Below the pieces are notes generated by a model, which worked only from the letters and a program-made list of their open reading frames with translations, did not search any database and was not told the origin of the DNA. Both the position numbers and the translations under genes were made by a program. A DNA stretch of 46,682 nt from contig CAYRRQ010000002.1 of the NCBI GenBank assembly GCA_964426715.1, positions 1-46,682 of the forward strand. Direction: 5' to 3'. This DNA comes from an uncultured Methanosarcinales archaeon (GTDB lineage: Archaea > Nanobdellota > Nanobdellia > Woesearchaeales > SM23-78). Shown piece by piece: positions 4,409 to 46,682 of the stretch; the stretch's first letter is position 1; every line of letters starts with the position of its first letter.

Positions 4409-4578
4409 AACTAAAAAATTTTTTATTTTTTTAATTATTATTTAATCCTTTTTTAATTCTACTTCTAATCATAATTCCCTGAACAAATAAATACTTCCCC
4501 CCCAATACCGCAGGGCTTTTTCAACACAAACCGGTATTTTCGAAAAGTTTATTAACTCCTGCACAAAGAAAATAAGTT

Positions 4579-10362: not shown

Positions 10363-10417
10363 GTTAATGACTACACAGGCAGCAAGGGTATATAAATTTA
10401 ACCATCAGGGAGCGCTT

Positions 10418-10567
10418 GTCCTGAATATTAGCGTCATTAACCTGTGAGCACTGCCAGAATTCCTCGTAAGAAACTCTGAGGAATAAAAAATTCTTATTAT
10501 CAATTATTCCTAATTTTTTCAATGCGAACTGACGCAAACGAGCATGAAATGCGAGTTATTCAGGATA
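10418..10567. repeat. MITE-like palindromic element, copy 1 (inverted partner at 30174-30320)
   Basis: Positions 10421-10545 are the exact reverse complement of 30193-30317 (125/125 by manual comparison). The ends are TCCTGAATA and TATTCAGGA. There is an internal hairpin AGGAATAA...TTATTCCT. Confidence 0.85.
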
Positions 10568-10654: not shown

Positions 10655-10691
10655 CTTAGTCCCATGAATTGGACCAATAGCCTAGCCGTGG
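10655..10691 (+). repeat. Duplicate of tRNA leader plus 5' acceptor/D-arm fragment (copy A)
   Basis: CTTAGTCCCATGAATTGGACCAATAGCCTAGCCGTGG matches copy B at 10746-10782, CTTAGTCCCACGAATTGGGCCCATAGCCTAGTCTGGG, at 31/37 positions. A third CTTAGTCCC lies at 10891-10899. Confidence 0.6.
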
Positions 10692-10761
10692 CAACTGTTT
10701 ACGCCCAGTTGACATGCAAAGTGTGACGTGCACTCGCTATGCTCACTTAGTCCCACGAATT

Positions 10762-11028
10762 GGGCCCATAGCCTAGTCTGGGAGATTTTTGCGAAAAATC
10801 TCGTAACCAGCAAAAAGCAAAGCTTTTTGTGGCCACGAAATCCTGTTAGGATTTTGCTGGAAAGCAGGCGACATGCGCACCTTTCAGGTGCTTAGTCCCC
10901 TTTCAAGAATGGTTTTTCGTAGGAGTTATGGACAAATAGGGCATCAGCCTTCTACAACAAAAGCAGGGCTTTTGAGCTCGCCTGTTGGTGAGAGCTGAGG
11001 GTCGGGGGTTCGAATCCCCCTGGGCTCA
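10762..11028 (+). tRNA. Candidate tRNA-Arg(UCU) with two introns: ~153 nt in the D-loop region and 38 nt at canonical 37/38
   Basis: Three exons: 10762-10785 (GGGCCCA TA GCCT AGTCTGGGAGA), 10939-10954 (GGGC A TCAGC CTTCTA) and 10993-11028 (A GCTGA GGGTC GGGGG TTCGAAT CCCCC TGGGCTC A). They give a 76-nt cloverleaf. A relaxed BHB can be drawn for intron 2. The intron 1 junction is uncertain. Confidence 0.6.
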
Positions 11029-26667: not shown

Positions 26668-26869
26668 GTTAAGACCTACTCTGCTTTGCTCACTGAAAAA
26701 CCGTTCGCAAAACTTCGCCGATACAAAAATGAAAAACATTTTTGAATGTGCAAAATAAAAAAATTTGCACACACCTTGCAAGTTTGCAATTTTAATTGTA
26801 ATCTCCAAAAACTTGTTTTTGATGGTTTACGTTGTAAACGTTGCAACTGAAGACAGCGACGGTCTTGAC
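26668..26869 (+). repeat. Structured intergenic repeat, family F, copy 1
   Basis: Arms GTTAAGACC / GGTCTTGAC. The 5' core is TACTCTGCTTTGCTCAC and the 3' core is GAAGACAGCGACGG. It shares CTTGCAAGTTT and GTAAAC(G/A)TTGCAA(C/A)TGAAG with copy 3. Confidence 0.7.
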
Positions 26870-26895
26870 ATCGCCTTTAAATTCATAATATTAGA

Positions 26896-27168
26896 TCAAA
26901 TCAGGCTTATATAGCCGGGTTCAGGCTCTGTTATGAGGTGGTCGTCTTTTAGCAGTCCAATTATTCTTTCAATCTCTGTTTCTGTCATTCCTTCTGCCTG
27001 GGCTTCGAGCAGAATGCTTTCTTTCTGCACCTTTTTTCTCTTCTTGGTAATCATGTTGTTGATTATGTTCATTAGTTTTATCTTGTTGTCTGTTTCTGAC
27101 TCATTGGTTACTGAGCGCAGTGTCATCCTCTGGATGCGCATTAGTTCTTCAAATTCGTCCGGGTCCAT
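26896..27168 (-). CDS. Small protein resembling the C-terminal winged-helix domain of MCM
   Basis: 'ESILLEAQAEGMTETEIERIIGLLKDDHLITEPEPGYISLI' resembles the MCM C-terminal pattern '...EEKVEELIRILKDKGAIFEPARGYLKIV', recalled from M. thermautotrophicus MCM. Confidence 0.5.
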   Translation of the reverse strand: MDPDEFEELMRIQRMTLRSVTNESETDNKIKLMNIINNMITKKRKKVQKESILLEAQAEGMTETEIERIIGLLKDDHLITEPEPGYISLI

Positions 27169-27332
27169 CTTGCTTGCTTAGAGGCGGGGGGTTTTTTTAG
27201 CTAACATTGTTAATACTACGATGTAATGTTATCCTGACCCCCTTATACAGGTTAGAAGGCTTGCCCCATATAAATAGTTTTCGCTATTAACATACTTTTA
27301 TGTATATCATTCCTTTTTTTGCTTCTCTCTCC

Positions 27333-28040
27333 TCAATTATCTTCTGACAGAACCTGCTTATAAACTTCTTCCTTGTCAAGGCTTAATCCCTGCTTGTTAA
27401 AATAATTGACAATGTTCTTCAAGTCCCGTCTAAGAAAATCATCTGCCTGTGGATGGCTGGTAGTCGTGGCCTGGCTCCAGTCAATAAATACAGGCTCCTG
27501 CTCATGGTTAAGGATGTTGAACTCTGAGAGGTCTGCGTGCACTAAGCCGGCCTTGTAGAGCTTCTTAACATTGTCCAATACTTTTTCAAAGAAAACCCTA
27601 GGATTATTCATTTCAGAGTCCTTGAGCATGGGAGCAGGTATTCTGCATCCTATTAACTTCATTAAGAGCACATTATCCTTTACAGCAATGGGCGCCGGAA
27701 CCTTCATAACCTCTCTTGCTTTTAGCAGGTTCCTGTACTCCCTCTGGACCCAAGAGAATATTACCAGGCGCCGTCTCTTTTTAATACCAGCATATCTTGG
27801 GTCAGGTGCAATGTACTCGTACATCTTATTAAAATTACAGTTTTCAACCCTGTAAATCTTGGCGATTATCCAGTGCCTGCCCTTCACAGCAGTGAACACA
27901 TTAGATTCCTTGCCAAGCGCAACAGGACTCTTAAGCTCTTCAAAATGTCCCTGGTTGCTCAGCTTGTGAATATTCCTCAGAGTAGCATTGTCAAACACGT
28001 TCTTGTAAACCTTCCATTCTTCACGTGATTTTTTGGGCAT
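27333..28040 (-). CDS. rio1: RIO-type serine protein kinase (Rio1-like, no N-terminal wHTH)
   Basis: Motifs 'LGKESNVFTA', 'LVHADLSEFNIL' and 'FIDWSQA'. Confidence 0.9.
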   Translation of the reverse strand: MPKKSREEWKVYKNVFDNATLRNIHKLSNQGHFEELKSPVALGKESNVFTAVKGRHWIIAKIYRVENCNFNKMYEYIAPDPRYAGIKKRRRLVIFSWVQREYRNLLKAREVMKVPAPIAVKDNVLLMKLIGCRIPAPMLKDSEMNNPRVFFEKVLDNVKKLYKAGLVHADLSEFNILNHEQEPVFIDWSQATTTSHPQADDFLRRDLKNIVNYFNKQGLSLDKEEVYKQVLSEDN

Positions 28041-28095
28041 GTGGATAAGATAAAAGCAAGGACTATAAAAAATTAATTAAAAAATGGCGGCGTCC

Positions 28096-28213
28096 CAGAG
28101 TCCTACTTTGCTTTGCTCGTTAAAGCCCTTACTCACAAAGCTCCGTCGCGCCGCCATTATTTGCCAAAAACAAAGAAGTGGCAGTGGAGGCGGCGACGGC
28201 CTCTAGGACTCGG
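28096..28213 (+). repeat. Structured intergenic repeat, family F, copy 2 (GC-rich)
   Basis: Arms (CA)GAGTCCT / AGGACTC(GG). The core is ACTTTGCTTTGCTCG. The inner helix is CCGTCGCGCCGCC / GGCGGCGACGG. An alternative helix AATGGCGGCG (28083-28092) / CGCCGCCATT (28149-28158) is also possible. Confidence 0.7.
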
Positions 28214-28268
28214 CCTAAGAGGTAATGAAAACTAGATAAAGTAAAAACTAAATAAATAAAACTTTCTC

Positions 28269-29537
28269 TTACAAGTCATCGCTGGTAAGGATGTACACTT
28301 GATTGCTGGTTTTCACCTTGGTATCCATGCCTACCAGGAAGTTGACATTGGCTCTTTCTGCTGTGCTCACAATGTCCTTCTCGATAACTCCGTCAAACAC
28401 TACTGCGTATATGCCTGATTTAAGGCTTTTTATAGTGCCCTGGAGTTCTGACAAGGGTACCTTGCCGAGTATGTTCAGTTTCTGGTCGAGTATATAGGCT
28501 CCTCTTGTTCCTATGAGGTCTTCGAGCATCTCATTAAAGGCTTCTTTTTCCTTTGGAGTCGGTGCCCTGGGCTTGGAACCAGGCGAACCCGAGGCTGGTC
28601 TCTGTCCAGAACTTGAGTATCCCGGGCGCTTGCTCTTAAATCCTTTTTTGGACTTGGAGTCAGCCCTGCTCTTACCCTTGAAATTATTATTGTCGTTTTT
28701 TTTAGTCTGAATCTCGCTCTTGGCCTGTTCAAAAGCAATCCTGCTCCTCAAGGCCTTGTGCAGTTCTTTCTTGGTTAACTCCTCCACTTCCTTGCCGTCA
28801 GGCGCCTTGGTGACAAAGTCTATGTCCCCTGCACCTGCGAGCTCTTTTATTATGAGGTCTCCGCCCCTGTCTCCATCCACAAAGACAGTTATGGTTTTCT
28901 TCTTGCTCAGCTCAATTATGGTCTGGGGTATGTTGGTGCCGTTCATAGCCACTACGTTCTTAAACCCGTGTTTCAGCATGTTAAGCACGTCTGCTCTTCC
29001 CTCGACTACGATGAGCTCATCGCTCTCATCAACTCCAGGCCCTGCAGGCAGTCTTTCCTTGCCATACTCCTGTATCTCCATTACTCTGACAGCGTATGCT
29101 ACTTCGTCTGCGAGTTCCTGGCTGTCTGGCATAGATGATTCTATTAGGGACTTTAGAAGTGTCTTGGCCCTGTCCACTACGAACTGCCTCTTGGACACTC
29201 TGACATCCTCTATCTTGGTAACCTTAATCTTTGCATTGCAAGGCCCTATTCTCTGGATGACTTCTAGGCTGGCAGCCACAATGCTGGTCTCTGCTTTGTC
29301 CAAGGAGCTCGGAATGGTTATGGTTCCCTGGGTCTTGCCGCCTGTAGTATCAACCTTTACTTCTATTCTTCCTATTCTTCCGCTTCTCTGAAGCTCTCTT
29401 AGCTCCAGGTCGCTTCCCAGGAGCCCCTCGGTCTGGCCGAATATTGCCCCTATTACATCGGGCCTGTCCACTGCGCCGTCTATCTGTATGTTTGAATGAA
29501 CAATATATTTTGCTGACACTTGCGCTATTTTCGCCAT
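28269..29537 (-). CDS. dnaG: Archaeal DnaG primase-like Toprim protein
   Basis: N-terminal 'DRPDVIGAIFGQTEGLLG'. Toprim motifs 'IVVEGRADV' and 'VFVDGDRGGDLI'. There is a basic S/G/K-rich insert. Confidence 0.9.
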   Translation of the reverse strand: MAKIAQVSAKYIVHSNIQIDGAVDRPDVIGAIFGQTEGLLGSDLELRELQRSGRIGRIEVKVDTTGGKTQGTITIPSSLDKAETSIVAASLEVIQRIGPCNAKIKVTKIEDVRVSKRQFVVDRAKTLLKSLIESSMPDSQELADEVAYAVRVMEIQEYGKERLPAGPGVDESDELIVVEGRADVLNMLKHGFKNVVAMNGTNIPQTIIELSKKKTITVFVDGDRGGDLIIKELAGAGDIDFVTKAPDGKEVEELTKKELHKALRSRIAFEQAKSEIQTKKNDNNNFKGKSRADSKSKKGFKSKRPGYSSSGQRPASGSPGSKPRAPTPKEKEAFNEMLEDLIGTRGAYILDQKLNILGKVPLSELQGTIKSLKSGIYAVVFDGVIEKDIVSTAERANVNFLVGMDTKVKTSNQVYILTSDDL

Positions 29538-29596
29538 TGTTAATCACCTTTCTTATTATCTTCTAAATTTCTTTAATCACTTAATCTGTTTTTTCA

Positions 29597-29877
29597 GAAG
29601 GAGTTCATGGCTTATCGCTTATCTCTGTCTAAGCATCCTGATAAACCAAGTACATGTATTCTTGGGTAAATGCTTGATAAGCATATGATTATTACTCCTT
29701 CTTCAGAACAAGCACTTATCTTTACTTGATTTTAACATCCCTTTAAGGGAGGTGGCACTCTCCTTTTAATCCGACTCCCCTAACTCATCCTCTTTGTCCT
29801 TTATCTTAAAGTAAAATATGAAGTAATAAGGAATGATGGTGCTTGTTCCTTAACTATCGTTGGTCTGTAACAAGCAT
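29597..29877. ncRNA. Candidate structured RNA / regulatory region upstream of dnaG (identity unknown)
   Basis: A nested hairpin spans 29597-29701: GAAGGAGT/ACTCCTTC, GCTTATC/GATAAGC, AAGCAT/ATGCTT, CCAAG/CTTGG. A 10-bp long-range helix pairs GAACAAGCAC (29706-29715) with GTGCTTGTTC (29839-29848). A competing helix pairs TGCTTGTT with AACAAGCA (29870-29877). Confidence 0.3.
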
Positions 29878-30040
29878 GCCTTGTAAGCATGCATTGACAA
29901 ATATGAATGGTTTGTAGCCCAACACTAACTCACGATGCTCATAGCCAAAGGCTTGTGCGCCTGGGCTCGCATGAGCAACTCTATGCCGGGCTTAAAAACA
30001 AGGAATATGCAGGTGTTTTTAAAGTTTTGGGTTTGGGGGC

Positions 30041-30155
30041 GTTTGTCGCAGAATACGTCGCTACCTTCATTTGCAATGTTTACTGTGTTTTTGTAAACTT
30101 GCAAGACGCGATGGAGCTTTGCAAAGCAAAGCGTAATAGTAATTCTGTGACAAAC
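30041..30155 (-). repeat. Structured intergenic repeat, family F, copy 3 (inverted orientation)
   Basis: Read on the minus strand, the arms are GTTTGTCACAGAAT / ATTCTGCGACAAAC. The core is TACTATTACGCTTTGCTTTGC and the 3' core is GAAGGTAGCGACG. Confidence 0.7.
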
Positions 30156-30173
30156 TCGTTTAGGCAGGGTGCT

Positions 30174-30320
30174 GTCCTGAATACGCTCGCATATGCTCGT
30201 TTGCGTCAGTTCGCATTGAAAAAATTAGGAATAATTGATAATAAGAATTTTTTATTCCTCAGAGTTTCTTACGAGGAATTCTGGCAGTGCTCACAGGTTA
30301 ATGACGCTAATATTCAGAAC
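30174..30320. repeat. MITE-like palindromic element, copy 2 (inverted partner of 10418-10567)
   Basis: Positions 30193-30317 are the exact reverse complement of 10421-10545. The flanking ~20 nt are similar but diverged. It directly abuts family-F copy 3. Confidence 0.85.
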
Positions 30321-30375
30321 AGCGACAATTTTTGCGACAACCAACCTTGCCTTATAGTAAGATAATAAGATAATA

Positions 30376-30384
30376 TTTATAAAA
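30376..30384 (+). promoter_or_regulatory. TATA box (TTTATAAAA) for the KH-domain gene
   Basis: The box is centred ~28 nt upstream of the ATG at 30409, which supports that ATG rather than the tracked TTG at 30391. Confidence 0.4.
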
Positions 30385-30408
30385 CATCAGTTGCTTCGCT
30401 TTTTTAGC

Positions 30409-31080
30409 ATGAAAAAGAAAACGCCGGGCGCAGCAAAAACCGGGCACTCAAAAGGCGAAAAATCAAGAGGCAAAGAATCAGGAGGCAGGAAATCAAGAGC
30501 CGGGCAGTTAGAAGATGAGCAGGTGGGCGAAGTTTATTCTTATACTGTCAAAATTCCTTTGGACCGCGTAGCTGTGCTTATAGGTGTGAAAGGAAGCGAG
30601 AAAAAGGAACTTGAGGATTACTCGCACGCATCTATTAATGTGGACTCAAAAGAAGGCGATGTCACTATAACAGGCAAGGACCCTCTCAGGCTTTACTCTC
30701 TTAGGGAAGTGGTGCGCGCAATAGCCAGGGGTTTTAATCCTGACAAGGCAAAACTCCTTCTTAAGCCAGATTACATGCTTGAAATCATAAGCCTTAAGGA
30801 TTACGGCCTGGTCAAGCCCAGCCACGCCCGCAGGGTCAAGGCAAGGATTATTGGCACACGGGGCAAGGCAAGAAGAGCCTTGGAAGACTTAACTGGTACT
30901 GCTCTCAGTGTTTATGGCAAGACTATCAGCATACTGGGGTACTGCGATGACGTGGCCAATGCAAAGAAGGCAGTAGAGATGCTTGTCCAGGGCAGCATGC
31001 ACGCAACAGTGTATAAGTGGCTTGAGGATTATAAGAGGAAGACTAGGATGGTCCAGAATGATTTGAAGGTTTCTGAATAA
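30409..31080 (+). CDS. KH-domain RNA-binding protein (archaeal Dim2/Pno1-like) with basic N-terminal tail
   Basis: Two KH-like segments: 'VKIPLDRVAVLIGVKGSEKKELED' and 'RIIGTRGKARRALEDLTG'. Confidence 0.8.
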   Translation: MKKKTPGAAKTGHSKGEKSRGKESGGRKSRAGQLEDEQVGEVYSYTVKIPLDRVAVLIGVKGSEKKELEDYSHASINVDSKEGDVTITGKDPLRLYSLREVVRAIARGFNPDKAKLLLKPDYMLEIISLKDYGLVKPSHARRVKARIIGTRGKARRALEDLTGTALSVYGKTISILGYCDDVANAKKAVEMLVQGSMHATVYKWLEDYKRKTRMVQNDLKVSE

Positions 31081-31107
31081 AAAATTATGGTTCTCTATTA
31101 TTGTGTT

Positions 31108-31233
31108 GAAAAAGTTCTACTTCACTTACCATAACCCTATACTCCGTATAGGAACATGGATAAGTTTTGTCTGGCCTTGCCATTGTTAACAAAAAAAGTT
31201 AACAAGACAACAATGGCACAGACAAACTTTTTC
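31108..31233 (+). repeat. Structured intergenic repeat, family F, copy 4
   Basis: Arms GAAAAAGTT (31108-31116) / AACTTTTTC (31225-31233), followed by CTACTTC. Hairpin ACTTACCAT/ATGGATAAGT. Block TGTCTGGCCTTGCCAT. 3' core AATGGCACAGAC. Confidence 0.75.
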
Positions 31234-31279
31234 TTTACACTATTCCAGCCAAAAATCTTTTGATTCTGCTAGGCAAAGA

Positions 31280-31287
31280 TTTATAAA
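31280..31287 (+). promoter_or_regulatory. TATA box (TTTATAAA) for top6B; leaderless spacing
   Basis: The box is centred ~27 nt upstream of the ATG at 31311. Confidence 0.4.
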
Positions 31288-31310
31288 GGAGATATTCATC
31301 AATTATAGTC

Positions 31311-33074
31311 ATGGTTTCGACCAAGGCTTATGAGATGGCGAGCAAGCAGCGCGATATAAGCGTGGCAGAATTCTTTGAGAAGAACAGGCATCTGCTGGGC
31401 TTTGACAACACCAGGAAAGCGCTCCTGACCACTGTGAAAGAAGCAGTTGACAACTCCCTGGACGCTTGCGAGGAAGCAGACATAATACCTGAAATAGTTG
31501 TTGAAGTAATAGATATGGGCGATGACAGGTTCAGGATAATAGTGGAGGATAATGGTCCTGGCATTGTTAAGAGTCAGATTCCAAAGATATTTGCCAAGCT
31601 GCTTTATGGAAGCAAGTTTCACAGATTAAAGCAGAGCAGGGGTCAGCAGGGAATAGGCATAAGCGCGAGCGTTATGTACGCCCAGCTTACCACTGGCCGG
31701 CCTGCTAAGATACTCTCAAAAGTAGGGCCTGACAAGCCAGCCCATTACTATGAGCTGAAAATAGATACTGCTAGGAACAAGCCCCAGATACTTAAAGACG
31801 AGAAAGGAGAGAATGAAAACTCTCATGGCACCAGGGTAGAGATTGACCTTGAAGGAACTTATGTTAAGGGTAAGCAGAGCATAGACCAGTATCTTAAACA
31901 AACAGCTATTGTTAATCCTCATGTCAACATAACCTATGTTAACCCAAAGGCAGAGCAGATAATCTTTCCCAGAGTCACAGACAAGATGCCCAGACAGCCC
32001 ATAGAGATAAAACCCCATCCTGCTGGTGTGGAGCTGGGAATACTCCTGAAAATGCTTTCAGCAACGAGTTTCAGAACCCTCCAGGCATTCCTGACCAACG
32101 AGTTCTCAAGAGTGGGCTCAGGCACTGCCAAGCAGATATGCGAGAAAGCATTAATTCCTCCGAGCACAATACCCCGCAGGATTAAGAGGGGTGACGCAGA
32201 GAAGCTCATAAACGCTATCAAAAAAACCAAGATTATAACTCCGCCAACAGAGTGCATAAGCCCTATAGGCCAGGAGTTATTGGAAAAAGGTCTTCGCAAG
32301 GAGATAAACGCAGAGTATTACTGCGCAGTAACCCGCAAGCCAAGTGTTTACAGGGGCAACCCCTTTCAGGTAGAAGTCGCAATTGCTTATGGAGGAGACC
32401 AGACTGCAGAAGGCTCAGTCAACCTCCTGAGATTTGCCAACCGCGTGCCATTGTTATACCAGCAGAGTGCGTGCAGCATATTCAGAAGTGTGGCAGACAC
32501 TAATTGGCGCCCGTACGGCCTGAGCCAGAGCAACGGCTCCCTGCCTCAAGGCCCGGTAACCATAGCAGTACACATAGCCAGCGTGTGGGTGCCCTTTACA
32601 TCAGAGTCAAAAGAGGCTATTGCTCATTATCCTGAAATCATAAGCGAGCTGAAACTTGCTTTGCAAGAAGCAGGAAGGAAACTTAAGAAGTATACTGTGA
32701 AGAAGCGCAGGGTTAAGGAAGAACTTAAAAAAAGAAGTTTTATAGAGAAATATATTCCTCATGTTGCAGACGGACTCAGGGAAATACTTGATCTGAAAAG
32801 AATCGAGGTGAGCAGTGTAGAAAAAATTCTTAAGCAGATGCTTGAGAAAAAGAGGGGGAAGCTGGACAAGGTAGGCTTTGACCCCTCTGAGAACCCGGAT
32901 TATGATGAGGAATTTGCCCGCATAGGAAGCATAGGACGGGATGATGAGAAAAAACAAGAGCAGGAAGAAGCCTGGGAAAACGCCAAGGCAGATGACAGCG
33001 AAGAGAACGAACAAAAAAAAGAAGAAAAAGACCAGAAAGAAAACAAACAAGAAGCCAAGACAAAAAAGGAATAA
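31311..33074 (+). CDS. top6B: DNA topoisomerase VI subunit B with K/E-rich C-terminal tail
   Basis: GHKL motifs 'EAVDNSLDACEE' and 'VEDNGPGI', 'YGSKFHRLKQSRGQQGIG', and transducer 'ANRVPLLYQQSAC'. Confidence 0.95.
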   Translation: MVSTKAYEMASKQRDISVAEFFEKNRHLLGFDNTRKALLTTVKEAVDNSLDACEEADIIPEIVVEVIDMGDDRFRIIVEDNGPGIVKSQIPKIFAKLLYGSKFHRLKQSRGQQGIGISASVMYAQLTTGRPAKILSKVGPDKPAHYYELKIDTARNKPQILKDEKGENENSHGTRVEIDLEGTYVKGKQSIDQYLKQTAIVNPHVNITYVNPKAEQIIFPRVTDKMPRQPIEIKPHPAGVELGILLKMLSATSFRTLQAFLTNEFSRVGSGTAKQICEKALIPPSTIPRRIKRGDAEKLINAIKKTKIITPPTECISPIGQELLEKGLRKEINAEYYCAVTRKPSVYRGNPFQVEVAIAYGGDQTAEGSVNLLRFANRVPLLYQQSACSIFRSVADTNWRPYGLSQSNGSLPQGPVTIAVHIASVWVPFTSESKEAIAHYPEIISELKLALQEAGRKLKKYTVKKRRVKEELKKRSFIEKYIPHVADGLREILDLKRIEVSSVEKILKQMLEKKRGKLDKVGFDPSENPDYDEEFARIGSIGRDDEKKQEQEEAWENAKADDSEENEQKKEEKDQKENKQEAKTKKE

Positions 33075-33090
33075 GATCAGGATTAAAAAA

Positions 33091-34176
33091 ATGGTTAATG
33101 ACGCACTAAAAAAAATCAGGGAAACAGCAAAATACGTTTATGAAAGAATAAAAAGCAAGAAACTGCCCAGCCTGGACACGCCTATCAGGAGCCTTAACAA
33201 TGTAACCTATAATCTTAAGGACGGGTATTTTGAGCTCAACGGCAAGGTCAAGAAGAGAACCCTGACTGCCTCCACAGTAAAAGGCTTTGCCCAGACCCTG
33301 AAGATGATGGCGCTCTCCCAGGAACTAATAAAGAACGACGATATTGCCACAAAGAGAGAAGCCTATTATGTGAGTAAGAACTGGGATGAGGCCAGATTCA
33401 CCGCCCAGAGCGACTCAGACACAGTAATGGATGACGTGGAAGCCATGATAGGTGTGAACAGGGAGAGGCTTGGATTCATACCCGAAGAAAAAGGAGGGGA
33501 TATAGCAGGAGACCTGGTAGTAATAGACAAGGACCCGTCCACGGGCAAGCAGATAAGGGTTGACTGCAAAAAGTTCGGCTCAGGCGCTTACAGTGTTCCT
33601 AGTAGCGTGGAACACCTCGGATTTGAGACCAGGGCTAAGTTCATACTCGCCATAGAAACCGCGGGTATGTTCCAGAGGCTGGTAAAGCACAATTACTGGA
33701 AAAAAGCCAACTGCATACTGGTAAGCATGGGAGGGGTGCCCACCAGGGCCTGCAGGAGGTTTATCAGGAGGCTGAGCGACGAGAAGGAACTGCCAGTGTA
33801 TGTATTCACAGACGGCGACCCCTACGGCTACCTCAATATCTACAGGACTTTTAAAGTTGGCAGCGGCAACGCAGCGCACATAAACGAGTTCTTCTGCGTG
33901 CCCCAGGCAAAATTCATAGGCATAACACCGCAGGACATAGAGGAGTACAAGCTCCCAACCCACCCCCTTAAAGAAGTAGATATAAAAAGGCTGAAAGATG
34001 GCCTGAAAAATGACCCTTTTATCAAGCACCACAAGACATGGCAGAAAGCGCTTAAAAAAATGCACCAGATGAGAGTAAGAGCAGAGCAACAGGCACTTGC
34101 AAAGCACGGACTTAACTTTGTAATTAGCAACTACCTGCCTGACAAGATAAAGAATTCTAAGACCTGGCTTGACTAA
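33091..34176 (+). CDS. top6A: DNA topoisomerase VI subunit A (Spo11-type)
   Basis: Contains 'TKREAYYVSKNW' (catalytic Tyr region) and Toprim 'ILAIETAGMF' and 'VYVFTDGDPYG'. The start is set at the ATG at 33091, because the tracked Lys-rich extension overlaps the top6B tail. Confidence 0.95.
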   Translation: MVNDALKKIRETAKYVYERIKSKKLPSLDTPIRSLNNVTYNLKDGYFELNGKVKKRTLTASTVKGFAQTLKMMALSQELIKNDDIATKREAYYVSKNWDEARFTAQSDSDTVMDDVEAMIGVNRERLGFIPEEKGGDIAGDLVVIDKDPSTGKQIRVDCKKFGSGAYSVPSSVEHLGFETRAKFILAIETAGMFQRLVKHNYWKKANCILVSMGGVPTRACRRFIRRLSDEKELPVYVFTDGDPYGYLNIYRTFKVGSGNAAHINEFFCVPQAKFIGITPQDIEEYKLPTHPLKEVDIKRLKDGLKNDPFIKHHKTWQKALKKMHQMRVRAEQQALAKHGLNFVISNYLPDKIKNSKTWLD

Positions 34177-34221
34177 TCTGTATTAATCTGTTGAATAGGC
34201 AAAGCCTTTTTTGGCGGTAGC

Positions 34222-34394
34222 GTTGAAAATCTCCTACTTCGCTGACTTTAACCCTAAACCAGAGTTATAGGAACAAAGTCAGCTATGTCTGGCCTTGCCA
34301 TCATTAACTACGTTAACAAGGGGCAAACAAAAATAAGATTTTTGGATGTTCCTGATGGGAACAAAACAATGGCACAGATAGAGACATTCTCAAC
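34222..34394 (+). repeat. Structured intergenic repeat, family F, copy 5, bracketed by 11-bp direct repeats
   Basis: Arms GTTGAAAAT / ATTCTCAAC. Core CTCCTACTTCGC. Hairpin GCTGACTTT (34241-34249) / AAAGTCAGC (34275-34283). Block TGTCTGGCCTTGCCAT. 3' core AATGGCACAGAT. GCCTTTTTTGG occurs at 34204-34214 and again at 34398-34408. Confidence 0.75.
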
Positions 34395-34448
34395 GGTGCC
34401 TTTTTTGGGCAAAACATTTAAATAATGTTCACTCTAATAATCATAGTT

Positions 34449-35042
34449 ATGGGAATGGCAAAGCTGAGGCCTGGGGATGAGCGTGATATCCTGGCTACCA
34501 GGTACGAGATAAATGTGAGAGAGACTTTTCACCTGAAAAATCTTTACAAGCTGGTTCATGAATGGTTGGGAGACGAGGAATTCGTATCTGTTGATACAGG
34601 TGATGACAAGGTAGAGTACTTGTACATTGACAAGATGCTCCCTGCTGGGAATAAGGAGCACAGAATTTGGTGGCGCGCAATCCAGGTGCCCAGGGGCAAC
34701 AGGTATTACAGGTACTTCTTAAAGATTGACTGGCAGACCCTTAATGTTAAGACTGTTGAGATAATGCATAAGGGCCAGAAGTTCAAGACCAACAAGGGAG
34801 AAGTAACTATTTGGATTGAGGCTTGGCTGCAACTGGACTATAGGAATGAGTGGGCGGACCATCCCTTTCTAAAACATTTTGACAGGTGGTTCAGGGAGAG
34901 GTTTTACCTGGAGAAAATCAAGTCTTACAGGGACGACTTGTACAGGACCGCGTTCAGGCTAAACCAGACCATCAAGCAATACCTTGAGCTAAAGATGCCT
35001 GTTGATTGGGGCAAGCCCTTCCATCCAAAGAAAGGAGTTTGA
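34449..35042 (+). CDS. Hypothetical protein (no recognisable family)
   Basis: Clean ORF. The start is ambiguous (ATGs at 34425, 34449, 34455). A TATA-like ACATTTAAATA at ~34414-34424 favours 34449 or 34455. W/R/Y-rich: 'HRIWWRAIQVPRGNRYYRYFLKIDW'. Confidence 0.55.
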   Translation: MGMAKLRPGDERDILATRYEINVRETFHLKNLYKLVHEWLGDEEFVSVDTGDDKVEYLYIDKMLPAGNKEHRIWWRAIQVPRGNRYYRYFLKIDWQTLNVKTVEIMHKGQKFKTNKGEVTIWIEAWLQLDYRNEWADHPFLKHFDRWFRERFYLEKIKSYRDDLYRTAFRLNQTIKQYLELKMPVDWGKPFHPKKGV

Positions 35043-35765
35043 TTATAATATCAGTGACTTAATATATCTTATTTCTTTTTTAACAAGTTTTATGTTTTTT
35101 ATTTTTACATCTTCTTCTATGATTACAGGCACTTCAAGTTCTTTTATTGGCTGGATAGACTTTATGAACATGGGAGAAACCTGTTGCAGAGGAAGATGGT
35201 CTTTTCTTCTATAAGTTCCGCTTAGGTGTATCTGGGTTATTCTGTTCTTAAATGCCTTAATCAGTTTTTCTGTTTCAAACATTGACCAGAAGTAGGCGTG
35301 AGCAACATCCAGGCAAAGACCGAGTTTAGGATATCTTTTGAATATAGCATGCAGCTTCCTTATAGTAACCTGTCTTTTTTTAGGAAGGTTCTCAGTTGAG
35401 AAGTTCATATTATACTTGTCAAGCACCTCTTTTGGAGGGAGGTCAAGAGGATGAATGATAATCATTTTGGCTCTTATCTGCTTATATATTTTTTCAATGC
35501 AATCCAGCTGTTTAATGACTTCTTCCTGGTTATCAGCTTCTCTTAACAACCTAAAAGGAGCATGAATACTGACATAATCCAGGTTTCTGAGCCATTTTAC
35601 TTGCGAAGCGCTTATTTTTGTGTTGTAGAGCTCTTCTTTTTTCCCTAAGGTTAATTCTATACCAGGGAAACCCAGTTTTTTTGCATAATTTATCAGTTCA
35701 GCCCTGTTTTTTCCTTCTGACCACCGCCATATAGTGCCTGTTGCAAAGCATAAGGTTCTTTTCAT
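35043..35765 (-). CDS. Xylose-isomerase-like TIM-barrel protein (sugar phosphate isomerase/epimerase family)
   Basis: Contains 'VSIHAPF', 'MIIIHP', 'LGLCLDVAHAY' and 'ITQIHLSG'. The start is set at 'MKRTLCFATG', because the tracked extension runs into the IS end. Confidence 0.7.
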   Translation of the reverse strand: MKRTLCFATGTIWRWSEGKNRAELINYAKKLGFPGIELTLGKKEELYNTKISASQVKWLRNLDYVSIHAPFRLLREADNQEEVIKQLDCIEKIYKQIRAKMIIIHPLDLPPKEVLDKYNMNFSTENLPKKRQVTIRKLHAIFKRYPKLGLCLDVAHAYFWSMFETEKLIKAFKNRITQIHLSGTYRRKDHLPLQQVSPMFIKSIQPIKELEVPVIIEEDVKIKNIKLVKKEIRYIKSLIL

Positions 35766-35824
35766 AAAAAATGATTTGGGCAGCAAGATTATAAATGTTT
35801 CTAGTTTTTTTATAATGTATTCGT

Positions 35825-36780
35825 TCATGACATATGTCACTAGTGGCTTTTTGTGTTCAAAAAAGCTTTTTAAAGGAGTGATATATGTCTGCGGGAGTCT
35901 TGTTTTCTAGGCTGCTGTGTGGTCTGAAGTGGTTGTATCTCATTCTGAAAAACTCTAGGTCATAATTGCAGAATTCTAGTTCTTCGTCCATTGTCTTGAA
36001 CAATCGTTCAACTTTCCCATTAGTGGTTGGGCTATGAATTTTTGTCCTGATATGTTTTATACCTCTTCGTTTGCACCATTTGTCAAACTTGCTTCTGGTA
36101 CTGTTCAACCCATAAGCGCTGCCATTATCAGTTAATATTTGAGATGGCTTGCCAAACTTCTTGATGAGATCATCAAGCAAATGTGTGACGATGATAGTCG
36201 TTACACTGTTTAGCTTTATCAAAGCTAAACTGTACTTGCTAGCATCATCCAATACTGATAAGGTGTAGCAGTCAAATAATTCTTGTTCATCAGTGTGATC
36301 TATCTGCCATAAACTGTTAGGATGCTCACGTTGCCAACGAACCCATTTCTTGCGCTTGCCTTTATTCTTTGTCTCCCGACAAAGATTATTTCTCCTCAAT
36401 ATCCTTTTAATAGACATCTTGGATATGTTAAGATGTCTAAGATGAGGATGAAGCTTGTCCTCGCCCCACCCAGTCTTCTTTCGAAGACCAATAACTTCCT
36501 GCTCAATAGCAGGAGTTATCTTGTAATGAATTGTATGAGGCCTACGAGAGTTATCAAGCAAATTCCAAGTTCCTTCATCTAAGCGTTTAACCCAACGCTT
36601 AAGAGTACGAACATCGACTTCATAATCATATAACGATTTAAGTAATCGACGACAAACAGCGTAAGAATGACCCTCAAACTTTAACTTAAAAAATTCTTTA
36701 CGAATCTCATGCTTCTTCATAGACACCACCAATATTCAGCAAAAAAGCTGAATATTTAAGGGTGGTGACATATGTCATGA
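35825..36780 (-). mobile_element. Insertion sequence (~956 bp) with perfect 16-bp terminal inverted repeats, single DDE/rve transposase (IS481/IS3-like)
   Basis: The left end is TCATGACATATGTCAC (35825-35840) and the right end is GTGACATATGTCATGA (36765-36780). A subterminal hairpin AATATTCAGC-A6-GCTGAATATT lies at 36731-36756. Confidence 0.8.
35857..36720 (-). CDS. DDE (rve/integrase-core) transposase with N-terminal HTH
   Basis: Candidate DDE triad in 'LWQIDHTDE', 'ILTDNGSAY' and 'TNGKVERLFKTMDEE'. The ATG at 36720 is preceded by GGTGGTG. Confidence 0.85.
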   Translation of the reverse strand: MKKHEIRKEFFKLKFEGHSYAVCRRLLKSLYDYEVDVRTLKRWVKRLDEGTWNLLDNSRRPHTIHYKITPAIEQEVIGLRKKTGWGEDKLHPHLRHLNISKMSIKRILRRNNLCRETKNKGKRKKWVRWQREHPNSLWQIDHTDEQELFDCYTLSVLDDASKYSLALIKLNSVTTIIVTHLLDDLIKKFGKPSQILTDNGSAYGLNSTRSKFDKWCKRRGIKHIRTKIHSPTTNGKVERLFKTMDEELEFCNYDLEFFRMRYNHFRPHSSLENKTPADIYHSFKKLF

Positions 36781-36840
36781 CCCAGCACACTAGTTTTTTT
36801 ATAACAAACTATTTAAACTCTTTTTTCTCTTAATCCTATT

Positions 36841-37827
36841 ATGCCTTATGATGTTATAACCTTGGGAAGCAACACAGTGGACGTGTTTGCTCATACTGAC
36901 CAGTCTGGTGTTATTGACATCCGCTCTGGTTCTGGCTCAGAGGAGTTCATATCCTACCCGGTTGGTACCAAGATGCTGATAACAAAGCTGATGCATAATA
37001 TCGGGGGTAACGGCGCTAACTCTGCAGTTGCTTTTTCCAGGCTCGGACTAAGAACTGCTTATCTTGGCAAGATAGGAAAGGACCATAATGGAAGGCTCAT
37101 AATGAATGCCCTGAAAAAAGGCAAGATAGACTTTATTGGCAGCCGCGGCGAGGAATCAGGCTTTTCAATAATCCTAGATTCCATGGAAGATGACAGGACC
37201 ATACTCACTTATAAGGGGTGCAATAATGACTTGTCCTATAAAGAGGTGCATGTGTCCGGGCTTAAGACCAGGTGGTTTTATGTTTCGTCTATGTTGGGCA
37301 AGAGCCTGCACACCATGCAGAAGATAGTTGAGTATGCCAGGAAGAACAAAATAAAGGTGGCTTTTAATCCTTCAGCTACATTGCTTGAGAACGAGACAAA
37401 AGCTGCTTTCAACCTCTTAAGATACACGGGCTTACTCGTGCTTAACAAGGAAGAGGCAGAGAGCCTCATAGGAAAAAAAGGAGCTGATGCCAATGCCAGG
37501 AAGCTGAGGGTTTATGGTCCGCAAACAGTGGTGATTACTGACGGCAAGAGAGGAGCATTAGCTCTTCACAAGGACTATTATTACAAGGTGCCTGTCAGCA
37601 GGGACATAAAGGTTGTGGAGACCACTGGCGCAGGAGACGCTTTTGCCAGCACCCTGACCGCAGGAATGATTCTTAAGAAGCCTTTTGAGTACTGCCTGAG
37701 AATGGCTATTAACAACGCAGAGTCAGTCATAAGTCATCACGGAGCACAGAACCTCTTGCTGAGCAGGAAGAAACTCTTTGACTTGGTAAGCAGGGACAAG
37801 AGGAAGATTGAGAAGAGAAAAGCCTGA
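36841..37827 (+). CDS. PfkB-family carbohydrate kinase (ribokinase-like)
   Basis: Motifs 'NIGGNGANSAVAFSRLG' and 'VETTGAGDAFAS'. Confidence 0.85.
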   Translation: MPYDVITLGSNTVDVFAHTDQSGVIDIRSGSGSEEFISYPVGTKMLITKLMHNIGGNGANSAVAFSRLGLRTAYLGKIGKDHNGRLIMNALKKGKIDFIGSRGEESGFSIILDSMEDDRTILTYKGCNNDLSYKEVHVSGLKTRWFYVSSMLGKSLHTMQKIVEYARKNKIKVAFNPSATLLENETKAAFNLLRYTGLLVLNKEEAESLIGKKGADANARKLRVYGPQTVVITDGKRGALALHKDYYYKVPVSRDIKVVETTGAGDAFASTLTAGMILKKPFEYCLRMAINNAESVISHHGAQNLLLSRKKLFDLVSRDKRKIEKRKA

Positions 37828-37849
37828 GTGCAGGGTTTTCTAGGGATTT

Positions 37850-38046
37850 GAAAATCTCCTACTCCGCCAAAGTTTTAAAAAAAATTACAAGCAAAAAAGT
37901 TAAGGAGGACATTCACTTTTTTCAATCTTTCGAACTACGTATAACTAAAGTAATTTTTTAGCTTTATGTTGTACTGACGTGCTTTTATTCAATTTTTTAA
38001 GTGAGCAAAGCGAACGAGCAAAAAAGTGGCACAGACGAAGATTTTC
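37850..38046 (+). repeat. Structured intergenic repeat, family F, copy 6
   Basis: Arms GAAAATCT (37850-37857) / AGATTTTC (38039-38046). Core CCTACTCCGCC. 3' core GTGGCACAGAC (38026-38036). It contains an inverted GAGCAAAGC motif. Confidence 0.7.
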
Positions 38047-38105
38047 TACGAAGAATTTAAATATTAGGAGATACTATGAAAGATTAAGGAATATCAGGTG
38101 GCAAT

Positions 38106-43836: not shown

Positions 43837-43964
43837 TTCTTCAGAAATCCCATATGCGGAGATTTTTGCTTACTCACTGCATTTGCTCTTAAAATCTCGT
43901 AAAAAGCAGGGGTTTCCTCCCTTTGGTCGCCAAGCCCCTATTCAATCTTCTTCAGAAATCCCAT
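43837..43964. repeat. 17-bp direct repeats (TTCTTCAGAAATCCCAT at 43837-43853 and 43948-43964) bracketing a small hairpin element
   Basis: The second copy is the 3' end of the SpoU/TrmJ-like gene. The bracketed segment holds GGAGATTTTTGC...AAAATCTCGTAAAAAGCAGGGG, which is also seen in tRNA-Arg intron 1. Confidence 0.6.
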
Positions 43965-46537: not shown

Positions 46538-46682
46538 ATTATCACCGTGAAAATATTGATAAAACCTTATTCTGAAGGGATAAGATATTATTTAAAAAAC
46601 TTGCGGAAATCGATAAAGTCAAGTTAACTGTGTTCGGCGTCTACATGACAGCCCGCAGATTTTACAAAAATCTGGTAAAAGT

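Follow-up and report, generated by a model that had tools for sequence, protein, structure and literature searches.

The IS6 family of insertion sequences (ISs) is abundant in archaea, and transposable elements of the miniature inverted-repeat type (MITEs) are known from this family, two IS6/IS26-derived MITEs of 227 and 336 bp being listed in ISfinder (PMC7986276). The bcr1 element of the Bacillus cereus group is ∼155 bp long, MITE-like and carries compensatory changes which keep a cruciform-like fold (PMC3184786), while REPINs are REP doublets moved by RAYT transposases, in which two-sided compensatory hairpin changes are common (PMC3116915). Among archaea, one of the highest MITE densities, 105 elements per Mb, is that of a Woesearchaeal genome (PMC11602168). 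We have analysed six intergenic repeats on a 46.7-kb contig (the window) of a Woesearchaeota (DPANN) archaeon, which a preliminary description had presented as an unclassified family of structured repeats fitting neither a promoter nor a MITE defined by fixed inverted repeats. The analysis indicates that the repeats are probably non-autonomous, MITE-like DNA transposons of 110–240 bp, and that one group, copies 4 to 6, is probably IS6-related to judge from the letters of its ends. Miniature mobile DNA that forms hairpins and undergoes compensatory change was known before; new here is this family in a DPANN archaeon.

The elements resemble bcr1 in their intergenic location, short direct repeats, compensatory changes and a distribution which is not conserved between close relatives; however, bcr1 belongs to bacteria, its repeats are 5 bp long and its transcription has been shown, whereas the present elements are known from DNA alone and have IS6-like ends. 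REPINs are likewise extragenic hairpin miniature mobile DNA with a conserved CTAC/GTAG-type tetranucleotide beside the stem, but they are bacterial, need a RAYT (HUH Y1) enzyme, consist of two REPs of 20–40 nt and produce no target duplication. Correia, ERIC, RUP and BOX elements (see also PMC3184786) are also small intergenic repeats with terminal inverted repeats (TIRs), forming long stem-loops when transcribed and often lying beside promoters or terminators, but their hosts, TIRs and duplications (TA for Correia) are different and they have no sequence relation to the family described here.

All six intergenic segments are present at the positions first given and have one layout, consisting of a closing stem with arms of 8–15 bp, a single-stranded CTACTYY junction, a hairpin A and a hairpin B in which the 3' block forms the 3' strand; the fold of the core is a three-way junction. 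In its general form the 5' block is CTACTYYRC, c3 being the exception with TACT only. The conserved 3' block originally recognised was confirmed, but the two separate types into which it had been divided are really one block, GRYRSMGAYR (GACAGCGACG, GGCGGCGACG, GGTAGCGACG, GGCACAGACA, GGCACAGATA and GGCACAGACG), and the two subterminal blocks are imperfectly inverted relative to each other. The elements contain no open reading frame (ORF) and are found on both strands. The genes around them are polB, RIO1, a Toprim/DnaG-like gene, KH (Dim2-like), top6B, top6A, a 205-aa ORF, an AP-endonuclease-2-fold gene, an rve transposase gene, pfkB and a PPDK_N protein gene. The copies in the window are:

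26668 to 26869, forward strand: c1, type A, with arms GTTAAGACC / GGTCTTGAC, 5' block CCTACTCTGC and 3' block GACAGCGACG.
28086 to 28215, forward strand: c2, type A, with arms GGCGGCGTCCCAGAG / CTCTAGGACTCGGCC in the long register and GAGTCCT / AGGACTC in the earlier register.
30041 to 30155, reverse strand: c3, type A, with arms GTTTGTCACAGAAT / ATTCTGCGACAAAC.
31105 to 31238, forward strand: c4, a type B variant, with arms GTTGAAAAAGTT / AACTTTTTC(TTTAC).
34215 to 34400, forward strand: c5, type B, with ends CGGTAGCGTTGAAAATCTC ... GAGACATTCTCAACGGTGCC and direct repeats outside them.
About 37847 to 38049, forward strand: c6, with type B ends, arms TTTGAAAATCT / AGATTTTCTAC and an AT-rich interior unrelated to the other copies.
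About 4457 to 4534, forward strand: a seventh, degenerate, c4-like copy with 5' block TTCTACTTC and a remnant 3' block, CGCAG.

The window therefore holds seven copies, one of them degenerate, and two more, c8 and c9, were found elsewhere. c1 lies 10 nt past the polB stop codon and its interior is a long AT-rich hairpin; it has 17/18 nt in common with c2 at the 5' end and 24/28 nt in common with c3 at the 3' end. The arms first proposed for c2 are present, although a longer alternative register also exists; its inner helices are GCTTTG/CAAAGC and CCGTCGCGCCGCC/GGCGGCGACGG, and neither of its arms was found between dnaG and RIO1 in the relative L003. Hairpin A of c4 is ACTTACCAT/ATGGATAAGT and hairpin B is TGTCTG..GCCATTGT/ACAATGGC..CAGACA. 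Only the ends of c6 belong to the family, and its 3' interior carries type A 5' sequence in reverse orientation, making it a mosaic. The degenerate copy has lost its 5' arm, while its 3' arm, CTTTTTCAACACAAAC, complements the 5' arm of c4 without a mismatch. Single-nucleotide differences between strains lie inside the elements at 34229 and 34379 (c5) and 30107 (c3), and the adjoining genes are identical between contigs.

Sequence from the same genome came to ∼52 kb, the window plus 5.4 kb, near-identical contigs of the same strain being present in ENA, Logan and JGI samples. The best named relatives of its Top6B are Woesearchaeota/Nanoarchaeota, with the closest non-self match 81% identical, and 113 kb from relatives, representing eight syntenic loci, was compared. 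When 197 kb in total was scanned on both strands, there were 22 occurrences of the 5' block and 23 of the 3' block, and ordered block pairs 40–330 nt apart occurred at elements only, at seven of them (five window copies and the two new ones) against ∼0.4 expected. Every ordered pair carries abutting arms of at least 8 bp, and there was no such pair in the 113 kb from relatives. The block patterns were built from the copies themselves and the co-occurrence test is to that extent circular; BLAST and nhmmer similarity between copies provides independent support for the family, c4 and c5 being 74% identical across 100 nt and nhmmer E-values between members ranging from 1e-26 to 1e-39. Thus the grouping of the six segments into one family was borne out by both block co-occurrence and similarity. 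Profiles of type A and type B detected no additional copies with nhmmer in all available sequence. Pattern scans of a viral-contig collection gave chance matches or none, and a scan of a genome-contig collection, which is without the source genome, with CTGGCCTTGCCATNNTTAAC gave bacterial chance matches only.

Several observations point to mobility. BLAST detected no element at the eight syntenic loci of relatives (Top6B identity ∼80%), in which the spacers between top6A and the next gene, pfkB and PPDK, and KH and top6B are 80–110 nt long, compared with 230–280 nt here. The promoter-proximal flanks align with the relatives, as does TTCTACGAAGRATTTAAATATTAG after c6, and relatives may retain short element remnants. 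c5 is flanked by an 8-nt direct repeat, TTTTTTGG, at 34207–34214 and 34401–34408, which can also be read as an 11-nt repeat, GCCTTTTTTGG, at 34204 and 34398. Scanning a JGI metagenome with the common 5' end of c5 and c6 identified the two new copies. c8 has the direct repeat GATAATTAATA on both sides (11/11) and resides on a 13.9-kb chromosomal contig of a different archaeon (37% GC) encoding a LysRS/AspRS-type synthetase, TFB and a beta-CASP nuclease; the family is therefore present in a second genome. c9 lies at another locus and is 93% identical to the 5' half of c5. A possible 7-nt direct repeat, TTTTCTA, accompanies c6 (positions 37836 and 38042), and no clear direct repeat was found beside c1, c2, c3, c4 or c9. 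A literature search found no report of 11-bp duplications in archaeal ISs. For most of c1, c2, c3, c5, c6 and c8, one end lies 6–16 nt from a TATA-like box of the neighbouring gene (TTTAAATA, TTTATA or CTTTAAAAAC), placing the element end at about the position of the transcription factor B recognition element. This closeness may reflect a target preference, or these may be the sole tolerated sites in very short spacers.

The arms were originally thought to differ freely from copy to copy, which does not hold for the group of copies 4 to 6. c5, c8 and c9 have the same 22-nt 5' end and c6 is one base off; since the 5' ends of c5, c8 and c9 are identical, the arms of this group are a TIR and not copy-specific. 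The 3' arms of c5, c6, c8 and c9 are imperfect complements of the 5' ends. c5, c6 and the two further copies share GTTGAAAATCTC / GAGATTTTCAAC, the same TIR thus occurring at four to five loci, and c4 alone departs from it, by three compensated pairs. Extended to the direct repeats, the ends are GGTTGCGTTGAAAA... and ...TTTTCAACAGTGCT in c8 and (C)GGTAGCGTTGAAAA... and ...TTCTCAACGGTGCC in c5.

These ends resemble the IS6/IS26 TIR consensus, GGTTCTGTTGCAAA, in which G1, G2 and G7 are invariant and G10 is highly conserved (PMC6807381); the inverted repeat of IS15-delta-I/IS26 is GGCACTGTTGCAAA, with an 8-bp duplication (PMC5328509), and archaeal IS6 TIRs are longer (at least 18 bp) and looser (PMC6807381). 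Matches to the consensus were 11/14 and 10/14 at the 5' and 3' ends of c8 and 10/14 and 9/14 at those of c5, compared with a background in the window, per position, of 7e-4 for at least 10/14 and 6e-5 for at least 11/14. G7 and G10 are found at all four c5 and c8 ends and GG at three, G1 being A at the c8 3' end. When the c5 3' end is read as ...GGTGCC, the 8-bp TTTTTTGG repeat abuts it, with one extra C before the 5' GG. Like IS6/IS26 MITEs, the elements are short and non-coding, their ends start with GG and carry the G7, TGTT-like and AAA motifs of GGTTCTGTTGCAAA, and an 8-bp repeat can be read at c5. They differ in that positions 5–6 and 11 deviate (GC/AC and A), the c8 repeat is 11 nt, no cognate transposase is seen, and the core is common to types A and B whereas the ends are not; furthermore, IS6 MITEs are described as two IS ends only, whereas the present elements have a conserved three-way-junction core. 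Type A ends match the IS6 consensus poorly, c2 at 6–7/14 (its long arms start with GG and have G7-T8) and the c1 and c3 arms not fitting at all. The earlier exclusion of a MITE is nonetheless not supported, in view of the fixed IS6/IS26-type TIR in copies 4 to 6, the direct repeats at two copies and the empty syntenic sites.

A Pfam scan of the 40 window ORFs revealed no IS6-type DDE transposase (DDE_Tnp_IS240), and no reverse transcriptase, Y1/HUH enzyme or RAYT was found among the window ORFs scanned. The only IS in the window is of the IS481 family (NCBIfam 210 bits, relative to a cut-off of 224):

35816 to 36789, reverse strand: complete IS481-family IS, with its transposase at 35857–36720 and a 25-nt TIR, TGTATTCGTTCATGACATATGTCAC, starting TGT.
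35801 to 35815 and 36790 to 36804: the 15-bp target duplication of this IS, CTAGTTTTTTTATAA.

The preliminary description had held that ends matching a transposase-bearing IS of the same genome would speak against its interpretation. For IS481 there is no such match, because the ends of the IS are unrelated to those of the elements; no element end resembles TGTATTCGTTCATGACATATGTCAC, the 15-bp duplication is not shared, and derivation of the elements from this IS as MITEs was rejected. The left TIR of the IS overlaps the called start of the adjoining AP_endonuc_2-fold gene. A same-strain ENA contig (L042) departs from the window exactly where the IS ends, a sign that the IS is either polymorphic in its insertion or present in more than one copy, and the transposase, used as bait for more genome sequence, recovered the same locus only. 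Three other known systems were also rejected. The integron attC arrangement (5'-RYYYAAC ... GTTRRRY-3', with AAC/GTT innermost) is reversed here, GTT being outermost 5' and AAC outermost 3'; IS200/IS605-type palindrome-associated transposable elements insert 3' of a fixed tetranucleotide without a duplication, have no TIR and carry similar subterminal hairpins at their two ends, whereas the present elements possess TIRs and direct repeats and their hairpins A and B do not resemble each other; and REPIN/REP-RAYT elements would require the Y1/HUH protein missing from the window ORFs, in addition to which direct repeats are present.

Changes which preserve pairing, a claim of the preliminary description, were confirmed by two alignments. 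From an uncurated MAFFT alignment of c4, c5, c8 and c9, RNAalifold predicted the terminal stem as well as the two inner hairpins, and seven changes were double-sided. A hand-curated alignment of five sequences, fitted to the structure with linkers in place of loops and bulges taken out, has 93.5% of its cells paired and 10 pairs with double-sided change, compared with 4.0±1.4 in shuffles (0/500 reaching the observed value) and 0–2 in slid controls. The compensated pairs are distributed over hairpin A (four), hairpin B (three) and the inner closing stem of c4 (three). Hairpins A and B are dissimilar to each other.

Combined, these observations are consistent with the following mechanism. A transposase acting in trans would cut the target with a stagger of ∼8–11 bp, and the element would be inserted into spacers rich in A/T, in most cases a short way upstream of a TATA box. 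Because the ends of copies 4 to 6 look like IS6/IS26 inverted repeats, the mobiliser of this group is likely to be an IS6-like transposase elsewhere in the genome, whose gene (DDE_Tnp_IS240) would be flanked by GGTWGCGTTGAAAATCTC. Pairing may be kept since both ends must suit the same transposase, and may also be kept since only hairpin-competent master copies multiply or since palindromes are corrected at the DNA level, a pattern already reported for bcr1 and REPINs.

The compensatory pairs would also be expected if the copies were not mobile DNA but small structured RNA genes, paralogous to one another, with the terminal stem and two hairpins as the functional fold, an explanation we consider unlikely. 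Predicted folds are strong for c3 to c5 (z ∼ -5 to -7.5), 7–10 pairs are compensated, the loop AACCCTA..TAGGAAC is conserved, and T-runs at the 3' arm could terminate archaeal transcription. However, folding is equally good on either strand, and among non-standard cells A·C is about as frequent as G·U, or more so, with no strand-specific G·U excess; selection on one RNA strand is therefore unsupported. Further, syntenic sites in relatives are empty, direct repeats flank copies, c6 retains only the ends while interiors are interchangeable, and no internal or upstream promoter is common to the copies. No copy matched the covariance models of Rfam 15, which include C/D, H/ACA, ribozyme and tRNA-like families, either at the gathering threshold or at E<=10; across the window, the new loci and the relatives the only matches were tRNA-Cys and one sub-threshold tRNA. 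This agrees with the earlier statement that C/D and H/ACA boxes are absent and that no known class of non-coding RNA applies. Inspection by eye also rejected two motifs at the arm-block junction, a bulge-helix-bulge splicing motif, as the needed 3-nt bulge and 4-bp helix are absent, and a kink-turn or box C/D, as the GA pairs are absent. Thus, of "structured RNA or hairpin-dependent element", as the repeats were initially called, the latter fits, and an RNA gene gains little from copies with no G·U signal and no conserved position.

A number of observations weigh against MITE-like transposition by a DDE enzyme. The c3 3' arm, ATTCTGCGACAAAC, aligns with TCTCGTCGACAAAT in relative L002 and TTCTCGTCTAAAAAC in relative L003, both of which lack the core, and the c3 5' arm is a 13/14 complement of this 3' arm; a simple insertion carrying both its own arms does not predict arm sequence in element-free relatives. 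Weaker than for c3, the distal c4 3' arm, TTCTTTACAC, resembles the relatives' TTTTTTATTACAC, TTCTTTGCCACAC and TTCTTGGTCACAC, and part of the c6 3' arm, TTCTAC, also resembles sequence in relatives. The c1 and c3 arms are unrelated despite homologous cores, from (C)TACT to GCGACG, unlike a classical MITE, which conserves its ends best, and type B 5' arms are much better conserved than 3' arms. Clear direct repeats occur in 2/9 copies only, of 8 or 11 nt and of 11 nt, not cleanly the 8 bp of IS6. Covariation of hairpins A and B is not demanded by a cut-and-paste or replicative DDE mechanism, and no IS6-type transposase, nor any IS with matching ends, is present in the window and the additional 5.4 kb of the same genome.

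The c3 matches lie beside a non-coding region upstream of dnaG which is common to four genomes, contains a promoter-like CCAAAGCTTTAAAAACCC and adjoins c3 here. They may be remnants of old copies in the relatives or targets which resemble element ends, or may arise from quasi-palindromes extended by template switching or from structure-guided insertion. One model which would accommodate them is a structure-dependent mobile module, in which the core alone (CTACT...GACR, the 5' arm included or not) is transferred, as single-stranded DNA or RNA, and the terminal stem is made at each insertion, either because the 5' arm pairs like a guide with a complementary target or by snap-back/template-switch synthesis that copies the flank in reverse. 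We regard this model as improbable. It is favoured by the c3 3' arm in core-free relatives upstream of a conserved promoter, together with its near-complementary 5' arm, by the similar if weaker matches of c4 and c6, by the homology of c1 and c3 in the core but not in the arms, and by type B 5' arms which are identical while the 3' arms are all different. On the other side, the direct repeats of c5 and c8 lie outside both arms, indicating that both arms were inserted at these sites; type B arms are inherited and not copy-specific; and the c4-type arm is element-encoded, because it recurs at 4457–4534. The matches in relatives, which may stem from old copies, are also short and lie in low-complexity DNA, and the window ORFs include neither the reverse transcriptase nor the HUH enzyme that the model would call on. 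That a fold-dependent three-way-junction core with a closing stem built against its target represents a mode not described for prokaryotic miniature elements is a suggestion to which we attach slightly less credence than to the model itself.

The RIO1-dnaG-(non-coding) block at 26870–30040 is inverted with respect to KH-top6B relative to all relatives, and c1 (forward) and c3 (reverse), the most similar type A pair, are located at its two ends. Comparison of the flanks found no IS26-style inversion signature, that is, reverse-complement 8-mers beside c1 and c3. The preliminary description had mentioned insertion into pre-existing palindromic targets, in which case core elements would have entered intergenic palindromes such as terminator hairpins or inverted duplications produced by rearrangement, and the arms would be target halves. 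This is very unlikely for the family. The arms do differ between type A copies, c3 is compatible with it, and the breakpoints occupied by c1 and c3 could carry inverted duplications, but no palindrome is present in relatives at the c3, c5 and c6 sites, the type B arms recur unchanged at four or five separate loci, and at c5 and c8 both arms are enclosed by the direct repeats, which argues against it there. Finally, chance likeness between AT-rich intergenic hairpins can be regarded as refuted: although a lone 8-nt arm complement no more than 300 nt away carries no significance by itself, 15–36% of control 5-mers having one as well, the blocks co-occur at seven elements and similarity between copies is extensive (c5/c9 93%).

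Other features of the window were noted in the course of the analysis. One further hairpin element was found at its edge:

46616 to 46682 (edge of the window; L046:5184–5472), reverse strand: c7, 277 nt, running ∼210 nt past the window end.

Read from the same-strain contig L046, c7 is closed by a terminal stem of 15 bp, AAGTCAAGTTATGTG/CACAGTTAACTTGACTT, encloses numerous inner hairpins (minimum free energy -102 kcal/mol), carries GGTTAAGTCAA duplicated in tandem at one of its ends, and lies just upstream of the eIF5A promoter; its style is similar, but it lacks the CTACT and GACR blocks of the family. The conserved non-coding region upstream of dnaG, ∼450–750 nt long, is located at 29538–30020 (reverse strand) in the window and at L002:4425–5010, L003:2302–3122 and L006:4928–5701 in the relatives. 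It contains long-range complementary blocks (GAACAGGCAC/GTGCTTGTTC and AGAAGGAG/CTCCTTCT) and an 85-nt hairpin starting from AGCCCGGCA, has no Rfam match in any of the four genomes, and is a candidate for a structured RNA that has escaped annotation, perhaps a divergent form of RNase P or signal recognition particle RNA. Two inverted repeats at 10417–10565 and 30175–30321, 129–150 nt long and 96–99% identical, are each positioned 50–70 nt upstream of a gene start (a HerA/DUF87-like gene and the KH gene) and at synteny breakpoints, the relatives having a contiguous DUF87-...-dnaG-RIO1-KH-top6B arrangement; L042 differs from the window at four positions in this repeat. The intergenic region between a 90-aa ORF and RIO1 contains a hairpin (27169–27332) with GGGGGGT...GACCCCC around AACATT...AATGTT, its sequence lying outside the family.

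A tRNA-Arg(UCU)-like gene at 10655–11028 (forward strand) was missed by ARAGORN and scores 26.3 bits in Rfam, compared with a threshold of 29. Its T-arm and 3' acceptor are intact, an intron of ∼40 nt interrupts the anticodon loop, CTTAGTCCCAYGAATTGGRCCMATAGCCTAG is tandemly duplicated, and the likely 5' exon, GGGCCCATAGCCTAGTCTGGGA, is located ∼150 nt upstream, implying a D-loop intron or insertion. The gene for a SpoU methylase carries a 94-nt insertion (43854–43947) at its 3' end. On either side of it stands an exact direct repeat of 17 nt, TTCTTCAGAAATCCCAT (43837–43853 and 43948–43964), which re-creates the C-terminus of the gene. This insertion and the insertion or intron of the tRNA-Arg-like gene (10.78 kb) have GGAGATTTTTGC and AAAATCTCGTAA in common and may represent a second family of small mobile elements, or else a tRNA intron that is mobile. 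A large ORF at 132–2879, cut by the window start, contains 285-nt (95-aa) tandem repeats (families D3–D9) and probably encodes a repetitive surface protein.

The repeats provide a concrete, annotated MITE family for the Woesearchaeota, whose genomes are reportedly MITE-dense but whose elements have so far been undescribed. For hairpin repeats in DPANN genomes generally, terminal repeats, target duplications and empty sites should be checked before a novel non-coding RNA is called. The c3 arm puzzle would, if true, be of wider interest. Because copies lie 6–16 nt from the TATA boxes of top6B, PPDK, RIO1 and the conserved RNA-like locus, as well as at the ends of the inverted block, they may shape both transcription and rearrangement in this very compact genome.

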